DNA of 64,000 nucleotides from Candidatus Absconditabacterales bacterium. Lineage in GTDB: Bacteria; Patescibacteriota; Gracilibacteria; Absconditabacterales; Absconditicoccaceae. The notes beneath the pieces were generated by a model. That model was not told where the DNA came from. It did not search any database and saw only the letters and a program-made list of their open reading frames with translations. Numbering within the stretch: the first letter of the stretch is position 1; each line of letters opens with the position of its first letter. The DNA is taken from positions 7,618-71,617 of the forward strand of contig JAYREU010000039.1 in the NCBI GenBank assembly GCA_041908765.1, written 5' to 3'. Positions 27,531 through 55,261 of the stretch are shown here, in pieces. The position numbers and the translations under genes are program-made.

Positions 27531-27998
27531 ATGGAAATTACTGCTCGCGCATTCTTGTTTGATGAAGACGAACGTATCTTGTTGGTAAAACATGCTGCTG
27601 GACAGCCATGGGTGCTTCCTGGTGGGCATCTCGACGAGGATGACGAGGGTGATATCTATACATGTCTCAAAAGAGAGATTGCAGAAGAAGTAGGCCTCGA
27701 AGTGACTATCATTGGTTCTGAAACGAAGTTCTCAGACCGCAATGTGAGCGCTTTGCCTTTGCCGGTCAGTATTCACAGAGTCAAATACGAGCATAGAAAT
27801 AGAGGCGAGATTGAAAGAATTGAATACTGGTTTTTCGGTCGCGTATTTGGTGATATCGATGAGATCGATACCGCAGAACTCTATGACTTTACCTGGGCAA
27901 CAGAGGCAGAGATTATGGATATGGAAGAAAATGTAGAAATCTACAAATCCATCCAAGAAGTCCTCGAACAAAACATCGACCTCCTCGAACTTTTATAG
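27531..27998 (+). CDS. Nudix hydrolase
   Basis: Nudix box GGHLDEDDEGDIYTCLKREIAEEVGL. Confidence 0.8.
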   Translation: MEITARAFLFDEDERILLVKHAAGQPWVLPGGHLDEDDEGDIYTCLKREIAEEVGLEVTIIGSETKFSDRNVSALPLPVSIHRVKYEHRNRGEIERIEYWFFGRVFGDIDEIDTAELYDFTWATEAEIMDMEENVEIYKSIQEVLEQNIDLLELL

Positions 27999-49268: not shown

Positions 49269-51707
49269 TTATGAGTTCTCTAGTTCATTTTTATAGATAT
49301 GTTTGTAGATTTCGATGAAAATAAACATGATGACCGCAACAGCTAATGCATCCAACCAATACCAACCAATTGGTACAATCGCCAAGAATTTTCATAATCC
49401 AGGTAGCATATAGGGAGCTGCTAAAAGCGCAAACCCTCATAGTACAGAAATGAGCAACCAAACGTTGTTGAAGGGATTCTCTTTCCATACCGGATCACTG
49501 AGCGTCCTCACGGAGAATACATAAATGAGCGAGGCAATACCGAATGATGCAAAAGCCACTGAACGAGCGAAAATAATATCTTTGGTATCTAGGTATACTC
49601 GTACAAACAACACGAAACTACTAATTGCTCCAATAGTAGATACCAATCAAATTAATTGTTTCATCCAAGGCGCGACGAGATATTCTTTGGGTGATCTGGG
49701 TTTTTTCTGCATGATTCATTTTCTGATAGGGTCTACGGTGAGGGCAATATTGGGGAAACCGTCAGAGACGAGATTAATCCACAAAATTTGTGATGCTGAA
49801 ATAGGCAGCGGATACCCTGTGAGGATTGCAATCAAGATAGCTATAATTTGCACGAATGCATCACAGAGAAGATACAGAATAATCTTTCTGATATTATCAA
49901 ACATTCAACGTCCTTCTTCGACTGCAGATACAATAGTAGAGAAACTCGAGTTCATGAGGATAAGATCAGCGGATTCTTTTGCTACTTCTGTGGCTTCAGC
50001 AACGACGATACCTATATCTGCTTTCTTGAGGGCTGGTGCATCGTTGACACCGTCTCCCATCATAGCGACTATTTCTCCATCATCTTTGAGTGCTTGTACG
50101 ATACGCATTTTTTGGGCTGGTTGCGTCCTTGCGAAGAGTTTGACATGACTATCTTTCTCTAGCCACGCATCAAGCTCAGCATCACTCATGGCAGCCAACA
50201 TATCGCCAGTCATCATCGAGTCATCTCTTACCGCTACACCTAATTTTTCCATGATAGCGCGAGCTGTACCAGGGTAATCTCCCGTGATGACGATGAGTTT
50301 GATACCTGCTTCATGCGTCTTTTGTAGTGCTTCTTTGACATCCTCTCTGACGGGATCTGCCAAACAGATGATGCCTTCCCAAGTCAGTCAGCTAGTTACT
50401 CACTCATGCGATATTTTAGTGATCGCATCTGAGATCTCTTTCTTCGCACAGGCGATGAGTCTATATCCTTGGTCTGTTAACTTATCTATGATAGCCTTGG
50501 TATCTGCTATTTCTTTTGCAGAGAGTGTAGACCATTGTATAAGATAGTCTGGGGCTCATGTTACATAGAGTGTCTTTTGATTATTGGTGGTATACAGACT
50601 CGCTGCATATTTGCGTTCGGAGGCAAAGGGTACTTTATCAAGCAACTGAGCATCATCGGTCACCGGAGATTGTTGCTGTGCTCGCGTGATAATCGCTTTG
50701 GAAACCGCATTATCATCATCGGTAGTATACATAATTTCCTTGGCAATCGATATTTTGTCGCCAATAATATCAACGACTTCCATCACTCCATGCGTGAGAG
50801 TCCCTGTTTTGCCTGAACAAATCACGGTGACTCAACCGAGCGTTTCTGCAGAGACGAGGTTTTTGACGAGACCTTTTCTCTTGAGAATTCTTTGCATACC
50901 AATAGTGAGTACTATCGTCAACGCCACCAATAGCCCTTCGGGAATAGCTCCAACAGCCAATGCTACTGCAGTAGTGAAGATATCCACAGGAGATTGTCCA
51001 CGAATGAGTCCTATCACGAAAACGACAAGTACAATTCCTACTACTACCCGTGTGAGTTGCTTGCTGAAATATTGTAATTGCTTTTGGAGTGGCGTGACGG
51101 TTTCACCTCATTGGAGACTACTGGCAATTTTACCGAGCTCTGTGGTGGCTCATGTTTTTTGAATTTCTACATACGCTGATCCAGAAAGGACGACGGTGCC
51201 CATAAATGCCCCATCGGCTATATTTTTTTCCACGGGTAGTGATTCTCAGGTGAGCATGGCTTCGGAGACAGTGAGTTTGGTATTTTCTCTCACGATACCA
51301 TCTGCGGGAATTTTGCAACCACTTTTACACAAGATAATATCTCCTGGTACGAGTTCTTTGGTAGGAAGGTCTATGAGTTTTCCATCTCTCAGGGTGGGGA
51401 TAGTGGGTTGGAGGAGGTCTTTGAGTGCTTGTAAGGCTTTGCCCGCTTTACTTTCCTGATACCAGCCAAGTACGGTATTGAGCACTACAGAAAATCAAAT
51501 AATAACGGTGTCTTCATAATCACCCAAAAAGAACGTAACTCCTGCCGCTACGAGGAGAATATAGACGAGCGGACTTTTGAGTTGCTCTAAGACTATCTCG
51601 AGCTGGGTAGGCGGTCTTTTTTCAGGGAGCATATTGAGTCCGAAGCGCTGTTGGAGGTCATGGACTTGAGATGTGGTTAGCCCGCTTAGTGTAGTGGTTG
51701 TTCCCAT
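49269..51707 (-). CDS. P-type cation-transporting ATPase (type II-like) with an aberrant phosphorylation motif
   Basis: TGES (Gly from TGA), ICSGKTGTLT in place of ICSDKTGTLT, VITGD and GDGVNDAPAL. Eight track fragments share one frame. TAA stop at 49269. Confidence 0.85.
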
Positions 51708-51850
51708 GGAGAGTGCAAAAAAATAAGTAGCATAATAGTAGTCCAAAATAGAGGAAATTGCAAAATAATTTGTGGAAAAGAATATGCGACAATTGCCTAG
51801 AAATTCATTTGAAATTGGCTATACAAAGACAATTTATCATTTCTTTGCCC

Positions 51851-54800
51851 ATGAGTGATGCACGTTTCTCACCTAATTTGCTTTCCGCTACCCAGGATAA
51901 TGCATATTACGCATTGACAATGTTTCCCTACCCATCTGGAATAGGCCTGCATTGCGGGCATGCAAGTATTTTTACGATAAATGACGTCGTGGCGAGATTT
52001 CAACGTATGCAAGGTAAAGTTGTCTTCAATCCCTTTGGTTTCGATGCATTTGGTTTGCCGACCGAGAACTATGCGATGGAACGTGGAATTCCTGCCTACG
52101 AAGTGACCCAAGAGAACAAAGCATTCTTTATCAAACAAGTGCAGGCGTTAGAGATTAGCTTTGACTATGAAAAGGTGATTGATACCTCAGATCCTGTCTA
52201 CTACAAACGAACGCAATGGATATTCGCTGAGCTTTTCAAGGCAGGACTTGTCTATCGCGACACGCTCCGAGTCAATCGATGTCCGAGCTGTCAAACGGTA
52301 TTAGCAAATGACCAAGTAGTAGAAGGCAAATGTGAGCGTTGCAAGACGCCCATTATTCAAAAAAAGCACCCGCAATGGTTTATCAAAATAACCGCTTATG
52401 CGGATAAGTTACTGGCAGATCTCGATCTTATCGATCGACCAGAAGAAACCAAAACAGCGCAGAGAAATTGGATTGGGCGTTCTGAGGGCGCAGAGATAGA
52501 TTTTGTGATTGAAGGACACGATGACAACAAAATTACCGTCTTCACCACACGTCCAGACACGATCTATGGTGTGACCGCTCTGGTAGTAGCACCAGAAGTA
52601 ACTTCACTGGATGAGTACGTCCCAGCAGATCATCTCGATGCGCTCCATGCGTATAGAAAAACCACGCTTGCCAAAACTGCTGTCCAAAGACAGCAGGGTC
52701 TCGAAGAAAAGTCGGGAGTCTTTTCGGGCATCTATGCATTACATCCACTTACAGGTGAACGTATCCCTGTTTGGTTTGCAGACTATGTCTTGCCCGATTA
52801 TGCAACGGGTGCAGTGATGTTTGTGCCAGCTCATGATGAGAGGGATCGGGAGTTTGCAAAGAAATACGGGATGCAGGTAAGGCAGGTTATTGAACAAAAA
52901 GACACAGATACACCCCCTTTCTTTTCGGGAGAGGGCAAGAAGATGGAAACTGAAAACTCCCCTCTCCTTTCGGAGAAGGAACAGGTCACCACTAAAGAAT
53001 TCCCTCTCCTTTTGGGAGAGGGTCAGGGTGAGGGTGTTCTGCATAAAAACAATATCTACCATACCGTTGAAGAAAAAGAAAAACTTATTACCTACGCAAA
53101 GGAACTCAGAAAAGCCTGAACAAATGGTGAAAAATTTGTATGGGAGTTTTTGAGAAATAGATGATATAGTAATCTCAAACGAAGAAGACAGCATCCATTA
53201 GGTAATTATATAGCTGATTTTTATTGTCACGAATACAAGCTTGTACTTGAATTAGATGGCCCACAACATGAATGACAAACATGATATGATGCCAAAAGAG
53301 ATGCATATATGGAAGATCTATGACTTACTATTGTTAGAATTAGCACGGATAAATTGTATGAAGAGCCTGGTTTGTTGTTTCAGTATATCGAGGAACATTT
53401 ACCCTCACCCCATCCCTCTCCCAAAGGAGAGGGGGATCGTGCATATACCTGATCATGAAAACTTATTAACTCATGACCCTTTGACGGACTCGATAATCAA
53501 GAAGCCAAGAAGAAAATCATCGCACACCTCGAGACGCTAGGTGTCGGTCGTGCTAAAGTGAGTTATAAATTGCGTGATTGGTCGGTAAGTCGCCAAAGAT
53601 ATTGGGGGAGTCCTATACCTGTCTATTATGATGTACCTGATGACCAGGTCGCATTTTATGCCTACCAAGATGCAGCGAAAAAACACAAAGATGGTGAGCC
53701 TACGCTTACCAGGCAAGTCATACAGGTGATTGTCAAAGATAAAAATTCAGATCAGTATGCTTGGATTGAGTGGAAAAGCGATGGTGATACCAGCGGATTT
53801 TTCGGGGGTATTGAAGAAGGGGAAGACATGCATGAAGCTATCAAACGTGAATTGCGTGAAGAAGGAGGAATAATCGATGTAGCTATCAAACAAGAGATTA
53901 TGGAGTATCACTGTAAGTTCTTTCATCCTACCAAACAAAGAAATCAGTATAGCATTTGCCATGCTTGGTATGTAGAAGTAGATCGCACTAGTTGTCAGGA
54001 GATAAGTAATGAAGAAAAAATGAAACATGAGATAGTCCGATTGACTGCTGATGAATTCTTACGCATTTCCAAGAATGATACCAGCATCTATGTCGTCAAT
54101 CAGCTCTTGGGTAACTCACAAAAGGCATGGCCACAAGCCAATAGATACAACGACCACAATCCTGTTCCTGAAGATAAAAAAATCCCTCACCTGATCCCTG
54201 ATGCAGAACTTCCCGTAGTACTTCCATTGGATCTCGAAAATTATAAACCAAGTGGTAAGTCACCTCTTGAAGATCATCCGACCTTTCCGGAGTATCACAA
54301 GGACGGTAAGGTTTACCGTCGTGAATGTGACACCTTGGACACCTTCATGTGCAGTTCGTTTTATTTCTTGAGATTCTTGGATCCGACCAATCCTGATCAA
54401 TTAGTCCGCAAGGAGGTCGCTGATGCACGGTTGCCTATTGAGTTGTATACAGGTGGCAAGGAACATACGGTGGGGCATTTGCTGTATGCGCGCTTTATTC
54501 ACAAATTTTTGTATGATCAATGATATCTCTCCTGTCCTGAACCTTTCCAAAAATTGGTACATCAGGGAATGGTACTGTGATTTGATGGGCGCAAAATGGG
54601 GAAGAGATATAACAATGGTATCGATCCTATTGAAATGGTGGAACTCCACGGTGCAGACGCACTCAGGACCTATCTGATGTTTATGGGACCGGTGGATCAG
54701 GATAAGACGCGAAATGATAATGCACTCCATGGTGTCAAAAAGTTCCTCGAAAGAATAGAAAGAATTTTGCAACAACCTCGATTTGGGCAAGGGAAACAGG

Positions 54801-55261
54801 CGGTTACCTCGGCAGTGCATCAAACTATCCAAGGTGTTACTGATGATTTTCATGCGCTCAAGCTCAATACTGTCGTGAGTAAATTGATGATATTGACCAA
54901 TACAATCTATGATCAACAGGCAGCAACTAGCGATGATATGTGTATCATGACTCGTTTACTCGCACCGCTTGCGCCTAGTTTGGCAGACCGTTTGTGGGAA
55001 GCACTGGGACAAACAAATGATGTGCAATATGCGCCTCGACCTCTTGTAGACTCAACCAAAATTATCATCGAACAGATTAACCTCCCTGTACAAATAAATG
55101 GTAAAATGAGAGGAACCTTGCCTGTAGCTCCTGGACTGTGAGAGCAGGAGATATTGGGATTACTTCACACACATGAACATTTCGCATGATATCTAGTGGA
55201 TAAAACGATACAAAAGTCTATCTTTGTACCAGATAAGATAATTAATATTATCGTTAACTAA
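51851..55261 (+). CDS. leuS: leucine--tRNA ligase with two large in-frame insertions (1136 codons)
   Basis: MFPYPSG..LHCGH (HIGH class), [21 protein letters not shown] (KMSKS) and a C-terminal [11 protein letters not shown]. All fragments (51758-53119, 53558-54523, 54596-55141) are in frame 2, and no TAA or TAG occurs in between. Confidence 0.9.
53000..53436 (+). mobile_element. DUF559 (Vsr-like endonuclease) cassette bounded by 36-nt inverted repeats, inserted in frame in leuS
   Basis: Left repeat: ttccctctccttttgggagagggtcagggtgagggtg (53000-53036). Right repeat: accctcaccccatccctctcccaaaggagaggggga (53401-53436). The interior encodes [58 protein letters not shown]... Confidence 0.65.
53633..54181 (+). 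other. Nudix hydrolase domain inserted within LeuS
   Basis: A perfect Nudix box [23 protein letters not shown] lies at 53804-53872, between the conserved LeuS blocks SPIPVYY and [11 protein letters not shown]. Confidence 0.75.

Follow-up and report, generated by a model that had tools for sequence, protein, structure and literature searches.

The leucyl-tRNA synthetase (LeuRS) encoded in the analyzed window, a stretch of 64,000 nucleotides from Candidatus Absconditabacterales bacterium (contig JAYREU010000039.1), carries within its catalytic domain a 188-residue in-frame insert. The insert has the Nudix fold (alpha/beta/alpha), as judged by structure prediction, and its sequence is that of an apparently active Nudix domain. 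Comparison across genomes indicates that the LeuRS-embedded Nudix domain is a Patescibacteria family of its own, fixed at at least five surface loops of the synthetase. A Nudix domain in LeuRS is undescribed in the open-access literature searched, including structures and descriptions of LeuRS. Aminoacyl-tRNA synthetases (aaRSs) are among the most conserved enzymes, and that hundreds of species have an unrelated catalytic domain fixed within such an enzyme points to a selective link.

The host gene leuS has to be read with UGA as Gly and CGA/CGG as Trp, a recoding on which the original prediction was silent. The frame starting at 51701 contains 12 in-frame TGA codons and neither TAA nor TAG between 51749 and 55259. 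The in-frame TGA codons of leuS coincide with Gly residues conserved in LeuRS (FLYDxG, QGMxLG) and its CGA/CGG codons with conserved Trp residues (VNWCP, APWP, and others); hence, leuS is a single gene, and the standard-code reading as three ORFs is ruled out. The recoding of Absconditabacteria has already been documented (PMC8629427). The gene and those of its parts that belong to the synthetase proper are as follows:

51851 to 55261, + strand: leuS, a single gene of 1136 codons (ATG at 51851, TAA at 55259; UGA as Gly, CGA/CGG as Trp)
52463 to 52912, + strand: CP1 editing domain of LeuRS, residues 205–354 (PF13603, 195 bits), ending at the loop termed site B
53456 to 53629, + strand: LeuRS core from GKLINSGPFDGL to the site C junction, residues 536–593, separating two inserts
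54194 to 55258, + strand: remainder of LeuRS, residues 782–1136, with the second half of the catalytic domain, the KMSKS-type loop, and the anticodon-binding and C-terminal domains

By its sequence, the host is an ordinary LeuRS of the bacterial type in which none of the motifs for catalysis and editing has been lost. It features the Pfam domains tRNA-synt_1 (PF00133, 148.6 bits), tRNA-synt_1_2 (the editing domain, PF13603), and Anticodon_1 (PF08264, 39.2 bits, residues 985–1098), and its alignment to LeuRS matches extends to the C terminus. The class Ia catalytic motifs are present as a HIGH-type HCGH at residue 34 and a KMSKS-type KMGKR at residue 915, and the CP1 editing motifs as the Thr-rich TTRPDT at residue 232 and PAHDERD with the conserved Asp at residue 326. 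Canonical LeuRS comprises approximately 800 to 860 residues and has the ZN knuckle, CP1, and the anticodon-binding domain in common with the LeuRS of the window. Like canonical CP1 and the leucine-specific domain, the Nudix module is inserted in a loop of the Rossmann-fold core. In contrast to canonical LeuRS, however, this loop carries an unrelated hydrolase fold in place of approximately 15 residues, and a DUF559 domain occupies a second loop.

The Nudix insert is located at site C, a knuckle-like loop on the surface of the LeuRS catalytic domain directly after RQRYWGxPIP; the flanking LeuRS segments are residues 581–593 (nucleotides 53591–53629) before it and residue 782 (from nucleotide 54194) after it. 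About 180 extra residues at 53633–54181 had been claimed, and this range falls within the insert delimited here. The loop had also been described as normally short, which agrees with a median of 15 residues at site C in CPR LeuRSs that lack the insert (n = 28 recovered with at most 30 residues there). The insert consists of a folded core between two linkers:

53630 to 54193, + strand: 188-residue in-frame insert, residues 594–781, at site C (q593/782)
53630 to 53701, + strand: N-terminal linker of the insert, residues 594–617 (pLDDT 49–77 over insert residues 1–20), evolving faster than the core
53702 to 54109, + strand: folded Nudix core, residues 618–753 (AF2 pLDDT >90 over insert residues ∼21–160)
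53804 to 53872, + strand: Nudix box Gx5Ex7REUxEExGU, residues 652–674, with CGT for both Arg codons
54038 to 54040, + strand: CGA codon of residue 730, to be read as Trp, in a Trp column invariant in family alignment A1
54110 to 54193, + strand: C-terminal linker of the insert, residues 754–781 (pLDDT 58–67; 54–79% identity to orthologues)

Profile and fold searches agree on the Nudix assignment, for which a Pfam search and an AlphaFold model had been proposed as checks. PF00293 matches the insert alone with 32.5 bits and the full protein with 28.8 bits at a gathering cut-off of 21.1. The Nudix box had been predicted exactly in both coordinates and motif; the window contains no second match to Gx5Ex7REUxEExGU in any of its six frames, and shuffling it 200 times produced none. 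Its Arg residues are true Arg since both are encoded by CGT, and the box is kept in orthologues, for example as GGIEEGETAEQAAERELLEEGGF in L001, one of the independent assemblies considered below. The AF2 model of the insert—computed from the literal translation, in which CGA was not changed to Trp—has a pLDDT of 86.7 and a pTM of 0.82 with low-confidence tails. A Foldseek search of the PDB with this model yielded 445 matches at E ≤ 0.001, and all 50 matches listed are Nudix enzymes, the best among them being 2azw (8.5e-9) and 3i7u (target-normalized TM of 0.82); Nudix structures are matched with a probability of 1.00. The 188-residue segment is rather likely an independently folding Nudix pyrophosphohydrolase domain held on two flexible linkers. 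At the position of residue 730, the related proteins P0002 and P0003 have W, and the corresponding W137 is invariant in the 40-sequence alignment A1. Genes of Absconditabacteria, hence, need UGA as Gly and CGA/CGG as Trp, as the standard code turns this A1-invariant Trp into Arg.

The same insert at the same site C occurs in the independent assemblies L001 (GCA_018001665.1), L002, L085, and L086, which come from different samples; in all four, the junctions are alike and the corrected code leaves no stops. This rules out a misassembly as far as possible. A site-C Nudix insert is also present in P0045, P0103, and P0173, and the exact site q593/782 is common to the window, P0045, and P0103. Relative to L085, the Nudix core has a dN/dS of 0.097 and the LeuRS core one of 0.081. 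Amino acid identities to orthologues amount to 94, 82, and 63% for the Nudix core and to 94, 92, and 64% for the LeuRS core, and the N-terminal linker is 50 to 71% identical to L001 and L086, in which the core is 63 to 82% identical. Both linkers evolve faster than the core. Purifying selection acts on the insert at the protein level as strongly as on LeuRS. The break-up of leuS into three ORFs under the standard bacterial code would fit an artefact, be it a misassembled or chimeric contig or a pseudogene in decay, with stop-codon read-through mimicking a fusion. Yet, the probability of such an artefact is practically negligible: the in-frame stops are all TGA on conserved Gly, without any TAA/TAG over 3.4 kb, the recoding is on record for Absconditabacteria, and four independent assemblies agree at a dN/dS of approximately 0.1.

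The extent of the family was determined by an exhaustive phmmer search of 1.84 billion representative proteins seeded with the insert of the window. Homologue searches by word index had returned few and mostly short matches; the LeuRS hosts emerged from the exhaustive HMMER search. This search yielded 181 clusters, the long matches being nearly all LeuRS, and LeuRS is the only identifiable multidomain host of the family among the proteins searched. IleRS, ValRS, and MetRS have the class Ia architecture and connective-peptide insertions in common with LeuRS; none of them appears as a host in the exhaustive search. Fifteen short, mostly fragmentary matches are unplaced, and the eight that were examined show Nudix alone or no Pfam domain. 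A locus search across GTDB species genomes with a 6-sequence subset of the alignment confirmed the family in at least 302 species genomes, with the domain embedded in leuS at 79 of the best 80 loci. The survey of CPR LeuS that had been called for finds the Nudix insertion widely, at five or more sites, and the insertion is not a peculiarity of the window genome, since the same family occurs in the LeuRS of hundreds of CPR species.

The insertion sites comprise at least five loops, namely q192/193, q220–226, q347–352, q593, and q821, and a single LeuRS carries one to three Nudix copies. Among these loops, site B, where the editing domain ends, clearly predominates, and site C of the window is the Absconditabacteria-type variant. 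An orthologue with the domain at site B that uses the standard code is HSX17785.1 (P0019) of Saccharimonadales. The Nudix domain of the window is approximately 33% identical to site-B members and, hence, represents a divergent branch. Members score approximately 90 to 205 bits against a family HMM built from 169 domains, with the window-insert orthologues in P0002 and P0045 at 168 and 132 bits, respectively. The original prediction had named a stand-alone Nudix gene at 27531–27998, of which the insert would be an additional copy. This gene exists (PF00293, 55 bits), but it reaches only 10.6 bits against the family HMM and belongs to another family, so that the insert is not a copy of it.

The box glutamates are kept at E16 in 146, at E19 in 144, and at E20 in all of the 149 domains compared, and the metal-binding glutamates and both box glycines are 97 to 100% conserved. 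The family carries a signature after the box (aromatic pair-x3-K-x2-N-R), in which positions +16 and +17 are the aromatic pair, +21 is K, and +24 is N. Departures from the strict box occur in 50 of the 149 members, for example E7 to Q together with R15 to A or M, and noncatalytic Nudix domains exist in other proteins. Both points would suit a noncatalytic module—a nucleotide-binding sensor or a structural or tRNA-contacting element that modulates LeuRS. Such a role is, however, very improbable given the conservation of the three metal-binding glutamates and both glycines, all of which are intact in the window, and given free-standing single-domain members, which are most simply read as enzymes.

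These free-standing members, along with tandem Nudix-only ones, show no conserved leuS neighbourhood in the six loci examined (L003, L004, L087–L091), where the surrounding genes are unrelated. The only free-standing locus examined with leuS nearby is L004, which also contains metG, tatD, an HD protein, and another Nudix gene. In other CPR LeuRSs, the same loops carry further domains: Ser_hydrolase (alpha/beta hydrolase), HAD_2, Ham1p_like (197 bits), a second generic Nudix, and DUF559. Another type of site-C insert was called ASCH-like by eye, a call that has no Pfam support.

Placement of the insert in a known Nudix subfamily was attempted by NCBIfam, a PDB profile search, and Foldseek, all of which give generic similarity only. 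The NCBIfam equivalogs for RNA pyrophosphohydrolase (RppH) are the highest similarities, yet score 17 to 27 bits at cut-offs of 116 to 259. The models for MutT 8-oxo-dGTPase score 23.1 against 97.9 bits (TIGR00586) and 16.7 against 148 bits (NF008044), and the NudI model is likewise far under its cut-off. The top structural match, 2azw, is itself uncharacterized. Near structures and profiles include the Ap4A hydrolases 3i7u (Aquifex), 1f3y, and 4mpo as well as RppH and MutT1, and the Foldseek neighbours also include NudI, dihydroneopterin-triphosphate pyrophosphatase, and Escherichia coli RppH with RNA. The PDB profile search matches AvrM14 mRNA-decapping effectors (E = 3e-9), NUDT12/NudC, and Dcp2. 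The window family has the box, the predicted fold, and the core size (∼135–150 residues) in common with the Nudix superfamily at large, that is, with free-standing Ap4A hydrolases, RppH, and MutT/NudI. Unlike these, it is overwhelmingly an internal insert of LeuRS and not stand-alone, and it matches no characterized subfamily model.

The LeuRS with its Nudix domain is most likely a bifunctional enzyme, considering that all motifs for catalysis and editing are retained beside the inserted box. In the proposed mechanism, the glutamates of REUxEE would bind Mg2+, and the Nudix domain would hydrolyze a nucleoside-diphosphate-X compound beside the synthetase. For the substrate, adenine nucleotide by-products or damaged nucleotides are the preferred guess: Candidates would be dinucleoside polyphosphates of the Ap4A/Ap3A type, arising from aminoacyl-adenylate and ATP, or noncanonical NTPs, and their hydrolysis may return AMP/ATP to a cell dependent on nucleotide salvage. 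Ap4A stems to a large part from aaRSs and is cleaved to AMP and ATP by Nudix enzymes (PMC10148737). The substrate assignment is the weak step of this mechanism, and ApnA as the specific substrate is a tentative choice. A Tyr approximately 16 to 18 residues past the box that stacks on adenine is said to mark ApnA hydrolases, an imprecise rule reportedly going back to Dunn et al. 1999. With this imprecision, the family may be compared with it: Residues are aromatic in 89% of members at +16 and in 94% at +17 (Tyr in 53% at +17), and the window has Phe-Phe. LeuRS is not known to be among the strongest producers of Ap4A. A possible coupling to Leu-AMP/Ap4A is somewhat weakened by the unrelated hydrolases (Ham1, HAD, and alpha/beta hydrolase) in the same loops and by the free-standing members without conserved leuS neighbourhood. 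The presence of these hydrolases also makes a house-cleaning theme as plausible as an Ap4A-specific coupling.

House-cleaning could also be all there is: an ordinary Nudix enzyme (a MutT- or NudI-like NTP pyrophosphohydrolase) would then be a functional passenger unrelated to leucylation, and LeuRS would only offer permissive loops and constitutive expression in a tiny, little-regulated genome. The variety of domains in the same LeuRS loops of other CPR bacteria—Ser_hydrolase, HAD_2, Ham1p_like, a second Nudix, and DUF559—is in line with this, as are the free-standing members without linkage to leuS and NudI, MutT1, and dihydroneopterin-triphosphate pyrophosphatase as fold neighbours. However, a passenger is rather unlikely: every identifiable multidomain host among the 1.84 billion proteins is LeuRS and none is IleRS, ValRS, or MetRS; independent fixation at at least five sites with up to three copies per LeuRS makes a LeuRS-specific benefit hard to avoid.

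The RNA-related neighbours point in another direction, namely to a Nudix domain that removes pyrophosphate or a metabolite cap (NAD, Np4A) from the 5′ end of tRNA-Leu or another RNA, with LeuRS as an RNA-binding platform, similar to RppH, NudC, and decapping enzymes. The profile neighbours AvrM14, NUDT12/NudC, and Dcp2, RppH with RNA among the fold matches, and the RNA pyrophosphohydrolase models at the top of the NCBIfam similarities fit this proposal; moreover, the host binds tRNA, and the insertion loops lie where the acceptor end is handled, in the catalytic and editing domains. These similarities are, though, far under cut-offs and common to small-molecule Nudix enzymes too, the AF2 model shows no basic extension for RNA binding, and the free-standing members have no RNA-binding partner. 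In addition, mature tRNAs normally carry a 5′ monophosphate, which is made by RNase P. RNA as the target is, therefore, improbable.

For the bifunctional enzyme, a wider proposal is that CPR LeuRS serves as a dedicated scaffold that ties the charging of tRNA-Leu to hydrolases of small molecules or RNA ends—mostly the Nudix family considered here, but also Ham1, HAD, and alpha/beta hydrolase—with the Nudix domain acting in cis either on the bound tRNA or on what the synthetase's own adenylate chemistry produces (Ap4A/Ap3A, damaged ATP). This proposal is possible, if speculative. If true, quality control or nucleotide recycling linked to aaRSs would have gone unrecognized, and selection would have favoured it repeatedly (at least five independent sites) in organisms unable to make nucleotides. 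Should the Nudix domain act on Ap4A-like by-products, it would be the first known fusion of producer and destroyer and a handle on the cost of Ap4A in a minimal cell; we know of no earlier case in which one polypeptide combines the enzyme that makes an alarmone-like nucleotide with the one that destroys it. Should it be a passenger, ultra-small genomes would secure the expression of a house-cleaning enzyme by nesting it in an essential gene. That reading matters for annotation because these proteins are labelled leucine–tRNA ligase or, if recoded, appear as fragments named "NUDIX domain-containing protein." It would likewise bear on the use of LeuRS as a phylogenetic marker.

Accessory modules are known from other aaRSs: The INS domain of ProRS and YbaK, AlaX, the N2 domain of ThrRS, and the new domains of eukaryotic aaRSs likewise represent an extra module, hydrolytic or regulatory, with free-standing homologues in other genomes. 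Such modules either deacylate mischarged tRNA or serve protein interactions, whereas the Nudix domain would act on phosphoanhydrides. To our knowledge, phosphoanhydride hydrolysis has not previously been linked in cis to any aaRS, and no report of Nudix-type chemistry in cis with an aaRS was found in the literature searched.

The leuS gene of the window bears a second in-frame insert, which the original prediction did not mention. It is located at site B—where most other CPR LeuRSs carry Nudix—and holds a DUF559 domain, whose Pfam core comprises residues 412–515 (nucleotides 53084–53395). This insert is also present in P0045 and is absent from L001. Its features are the following:

52913 to 53455, + strand: in-frame insert 1, residues 355–535, at site B, with a DUF559/Vsr-like endonuclease-fold domain (PF04480, 95.7–99.4 bits)
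53011 to 53035, no strand assigned: left arm of a 25-nt inverted repeat around the DUF559 core, the arms being 88% complementary
53401 to 53425, no strand assigned: right arm of this inverted repeat

With inteins and homing-endonuclease insertions, the Nudix insert has in common that it is a large in-frame insert interrupting an essential housekeeping gene where the sequence is conserved, and the inverted repeats that flank the neighbouring DUF559 insert add to this likeness. An intein or spliced element was nevertheless rejected for the Nudix insert: The Pfam scan of LeuRS reveals no Hint domain, and the junctions YY|DVPDD and IPHL|IPDAE have neither a Cys/Ser/Thr nucleophile nor a His-Asn pair. 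Unlike inteins, the Nudix insert is constrained at the protein level by purifying selection, and nothing indicates that it is spliced out. Around the DUF559 core, a hairpin unit of the form CCCTCTCC-TTTC-GGAGAGGG occurs in three copies (52915–53021) ahead of the left inverted-repeat arm, and a fourth copy (53414–53433) overlaps the right arm.

The LeuRS of the window carries a Nudix insert of 188 residues at a place where CPR LeuRS with no large insert have a loop with a median length of 15 residues. The gene and its inserts have the following coordinates:

51851–55261, leuS as a single gene of 1136 codons (UGA = Gly, CGA/CGG = Trp)
51758–53119, 53558–54523, and 54596–55141, the three LeuRS-like ORFs of this region in the standard bacterial code
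52913–53455, second in-frame insert (residues 355–535)
53084–53395, DUF559 core of the second insert
53011–53035 and 53401–53425, arms of a 25-nt inverted repeat bracketing the DUF559 core
52915, 52960, 53002, and 53414, GC-rich hairpin units
53630–54193, Nudix insert
53804–53872, Nudix box
27531–27998 (+ strand), stand-alone Nudix gene

The original observation of about 180 extra residues between two LeuRS motifs usually joined by a short loop is borne out: 188 residues are counted between the flanks (aa 581–593 and aa 782 onward), and the loop does not exceed 30 residues in 28 of the LeuRS recovered. In LeuRS without a large insert at this site, it often is a CxxC knuckle. The Nudix box lies exactly where it had been placed and is the only match to Gx5Ex7REUxEExGU in the six frames of the window, with none in 200 shuffles of it. 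Pfam assigns the insert to NUDIX (PF00293) with 32.5 bits at a gathering score of 21.1. The AlphaFold2 model, built on a 40-sequence family alignment, has a mean pLDDT of 86.7 and a pTM of 0.82: the core (insert residues about 21–160) is confident, and the tails are of low confidence, consistent with linkers. A Foldseek search of the PDB with this model yields Nudix structures at a probability of 1.00, headed by 2azw, 3i7u, 6dt3, MutT1, and RppH; hence, profile searches, named beforehand as a possible refutation, and structure searches agree on a Nudix fold. The host retains HCGH, KMGKR (a KMSKS-type loop), TTRPDT, PAHDERD, and all expected Pfam domains and, as judged by its sequence, looks fully functional.

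The reading frame of leuS depends on the genetic code. The frame from 51701 contains 12 in-frame stops within 51749–55259, all of them TGA, and neither TAA nor TAG over this interval. The TGA codons (for example, 53117, 53474, and 54521) coincide with conserved Gly residues of LeuRS (FLYDxG and QGMxLG), and the CGA codons (for example, 52208, 52277, 52436, 54038, 54710, and 55037) and CGG codons (52847 and 54428) with conserved Trp residues (YYKW, VNWCP, LDxWP, AxxWLP, and APWP); aa 730 (CGA) is Trp in the orthologues P0002 and P0003. Both reassignments, UGA to Gly and CGA/CGG to Trp, are described for Absconditabacteria (Shulgina and Eddy 2021, PMC8629427), and with them, leuS is one gene. 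Both Arg residues of the Nudix box are CGT codons and are therefore untouched by recoding. The Trp codons CGA (9) and CGG (2) together come close to TGG (12), and the local GC content of 0.38 to 0.47 is higher than the 0.26 to 0.38 reported for reassigned clades, which suggests that the reassignment in this genome is advanced. Public pipelines applied the standard code, and LeuRS from such recoded genomes are for this reason deposited in pieces. These pieces show Arg for Trp codons (RDRSVSRQRYRGSPIP), and the middle one, counterpart of the window ORF 53558–54523, is labelled "NUDIX domain-containing protein" in the related locus L001 (959–1624, P0002).

Misassembly had been considered as a source of the insertion. 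Such an artefact has a negligible probability, since identical junctions are found in L001 (GCA_018001665.1) and in the Logan contigs L002, L085, and L086 from three other runs. Read in the corrected code, the aligned region is free of stops in L001, L085, and L086—the three loci aligned. Compared with L085, dN/dS is 0.097 for the Nudix core and 0.081 for the LeuRS core, and amino-acid identities to L085, L086, and L001 are 94, 82, and 63% for the Nudix core and 94, 92, and 64% for the LeuRS core. The Nudix domain is thus under purifying selection equal to that of its essential host. Over these three loci, the linkers diverge faster overall than the Nudix core: the C-terminal linker is 61% (L085), 79% (L086), and 54% (L001) identical and the N-terminal linker 71% (L086) and 50% (L001), the L085 sequence not reaching the latter.

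An exhaustive phmmer search with the insert over 1.84 billion representative proteins gave 181 clusters at E ≤ 1e-3. When the 150 matches listed were compared by BLAST with the window LeuRS, nearly all long ones proved to be LeuRS with this Nudix type. A family HMM was built, and the LeuRS residues flanking each domain were mapped onto the window LeuRS (q numbers), where the insertion points group at a few loops:

Insertion sites of the Nudix family in LeuRS
Site A, q192/193: ZN knuckle to editing domain, often with tandem pairs
Site A', q220–226: first hairpin of the editing domain, few cases
Site B, q347–352: late loop of the editing domain ahead of GxLxNSGxFxG, 85 of the 149 near-full-length domains classified
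Site C, q593: window, P0001–3, P0006, P0013, P0045, P0103, and P0115
Site D, q821/822: catalytic domain, P0047 and P0126

In CPR LeuRS that retain the cysteines, a single knuckle is made up of two CxxC halves, one at site C (as in P0025) and the other at site D ("...VKCPKCG" of L055), so the two sites probably lie close together in space. In T. thermophilus LeuRS, this knuckle corresponds to the second zinc site. Some LeuRS hold two or three family copies, for instance P0004, with a tandem pair before the editing domain and a third copy after it (aa 223–374, 386–535, and 706–856), and P0005; P0007 and P0011 are further multi-copy cases.

The insert, not known to the first observer from canonical LeuS, is not peculiar to this genome: with one genome scanned for each GTDB species, a family Nudix was confirmed at no fewer than 302 loci. 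The best 80 of these at least 302 loci are titled Saccharibacteria, Paceibacteria, Taylor-, Morani-, Uhr-, Zambryski-, Berkel-, Giovannoni-, Falkowbacteria, or "Patescibacteria group"; the Nudix lies inside leuS in 79 of them, usually after the N-terminal part and the editing domain and ahead of the remaining LeuRS. The embedded Nudix of the window forms a divergent branch that shares about 33% identity with site-B members and 62% with L001. The stand-alone Nudix gene of the window does exist (PF00293, 55 bits), but it is not an additional copy of the embedded domain, since it reaches 10.6 bits with the family HMM. Family proteins other than LeuRS are either free-standing, with a length of about 160 to 180 aa, or tandem Nudix-only forms, and no further host protein was seen; P0009, of the latter kind, has two complete copies and the start of a third. 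A functional passenger unrelated to leucylation is unlikely: among the identified hosts of the phmmer matches listed, there is no IleRS, ValRS, MetRS, or any other non-LeuRS protein, and its fixation at no fewer than five LeuRS sites, with several copies in some proteins, argues against a pure passenger.

Nudix hydrolases, bacterial LeuRS, and the habit of aminoacyl-tRNA synthetases of gaining extra domains are known. In the open-access full texts searched, no description was found of a pyrophosphohydrolase nested in LeuRS within its catalytic or editing domain, and this combination, recurrent over a superphylum, is the apparently new element. NCBIfam has no model of the family, and the architecture is present in public databases annotated simply as LeuRS (P0019: [quoted passage not shown]) or as fragments (L001).

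The REUxEE glutamates are kept in 146, 144, and 149 of the 149 near-full-length family domains and the box glycines in 145 and 144. The strict box is present in 99/149; departures from it are mainly E7→Q and R15→A/M, which covary. A family-specific signature follows the box: two aromatic residues at +16/+17 (89 and 94%), Lys +21, and Asn +24 (each 144/149), usually then Arg. The conservation of the metal ligands in domains so diverged and the existence of single-domain members that stand alone argue for the embedded Nudix being an active enzyme and leave a non-catalytic module very improbable. None of the known subfamilies can be assigned: NCBIfam models, including RppH, MutT, NudI, and NudE, all score well below their cut-offs; the top PDB profile matches are an uncharacterised Nudix of E. 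faecalis (2azw), AvrM14 decapping effectors, and a plant Ap4A hydrolase (1f3y).

Site B, the Nudix loop of most CPR LeuRS, is exactly where the window LeuRS holds its second insert, a DUF559 domain (Vsr-like endonuclease fold; Pfam, 95.7 bits). A CCCTCTCC-TTTC-GGAGAGGG hairpin unit occurs in three copies upstream of the DUF559 core, a fourth overlapping the right arm of the inverted repeat. The insert is shared with P0045, a LeuRS of 48% identity, and absent from the closer relative L001; it looks like the footprint of a mobile element, possibly domesticated or tolerated. Other in-frame domains in Nudix-bearing CPR LeuRS are Ser_hydrolase (PF06821), HAD_2, Ham1p_like (ITPase, 197 bits), and DUF559, and the inserts, several of them of no assigned family, lie at site C (P0063 aa 594–755, P0036, P0106, L008, L010, and L017), site D (P0070 aa 654–808, L055, L057, and L018), the anticodon-binding domain (P0071 aa 984–1167 and L074), and site A' (P0072). 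CPR LeuRS appears to act as a scaffold for small hydrolase domains in general.

The Nudix module folds separately, is flexibly linked to the catalytic domain at a surface knuckle, and combines intact metal ligands with strong constraint. It would hydrolyse a nucleoside-diphosphate-X compound near the synthetase; an active Nudix that is tied functionally to LeuRS and has adenine-nucleotide by-products or damaged nucleotides as its substrates is on balance the probable reading. The earlier suggestion of Ap4A-type by-products is reasonable: the structures nearest to the insert model (Foldseek, PDB) include Ap4A hydrolases, and the aromatic pair past the box would fit a rule for ApnA hydrolases. 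Aminoacyl-tRNA synthetases are the chief source of Ap4A, which Nudix enzymes cleave to AMP and ATP (PMC10148737). ApnA as the specific substrate is a tentative assignment, our commitment being weakened by three points: an alpha/beta serine hydrolase, a HAD phosphatase, and a Ham1/ITPase occupy the same loops in other CPR LeuRS that bear this Nudix; free-standing family members have no conserved leuS neighbourhood among the loci examined; and RNA-directed Nudix enzymes are relatives of equal closeness. The last point also favours an RNA or tRNA 5'-end enzyme, which we consider rather improbable. The other hydrolase inserts, with DUF559 at site B of the window, suggest that house-cleaning is the general theme or that the loops are highly permissive.

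The one suggestive locus among those with free-standing members is L004 (GCA_023245955.1, JAHFJI010000005.1, 482–8549), a same-strand cluster of metG, a hypothetical gene, tatD, a free family Nudix (P0020, 182 aa), hypothetical genes, an HD phosphohydrolase, a hypothetical gene, a second unrelated Nudix, and leuS, the 823-aa product of which has no insert and no Nudix match on record. This single case fits an alternation of fused and free forms. CPR-type LeuRS–Nudix also occur under the titles "uncultured Gammaproteobacteria" (L008, L009, L016, L049, L052, L057, L067, and L068) and "Woesearchaeota archaeon" (L011 and L081); mislabelled MAGs are the probable reason, not an extension of the family beyond Patescibacteria.
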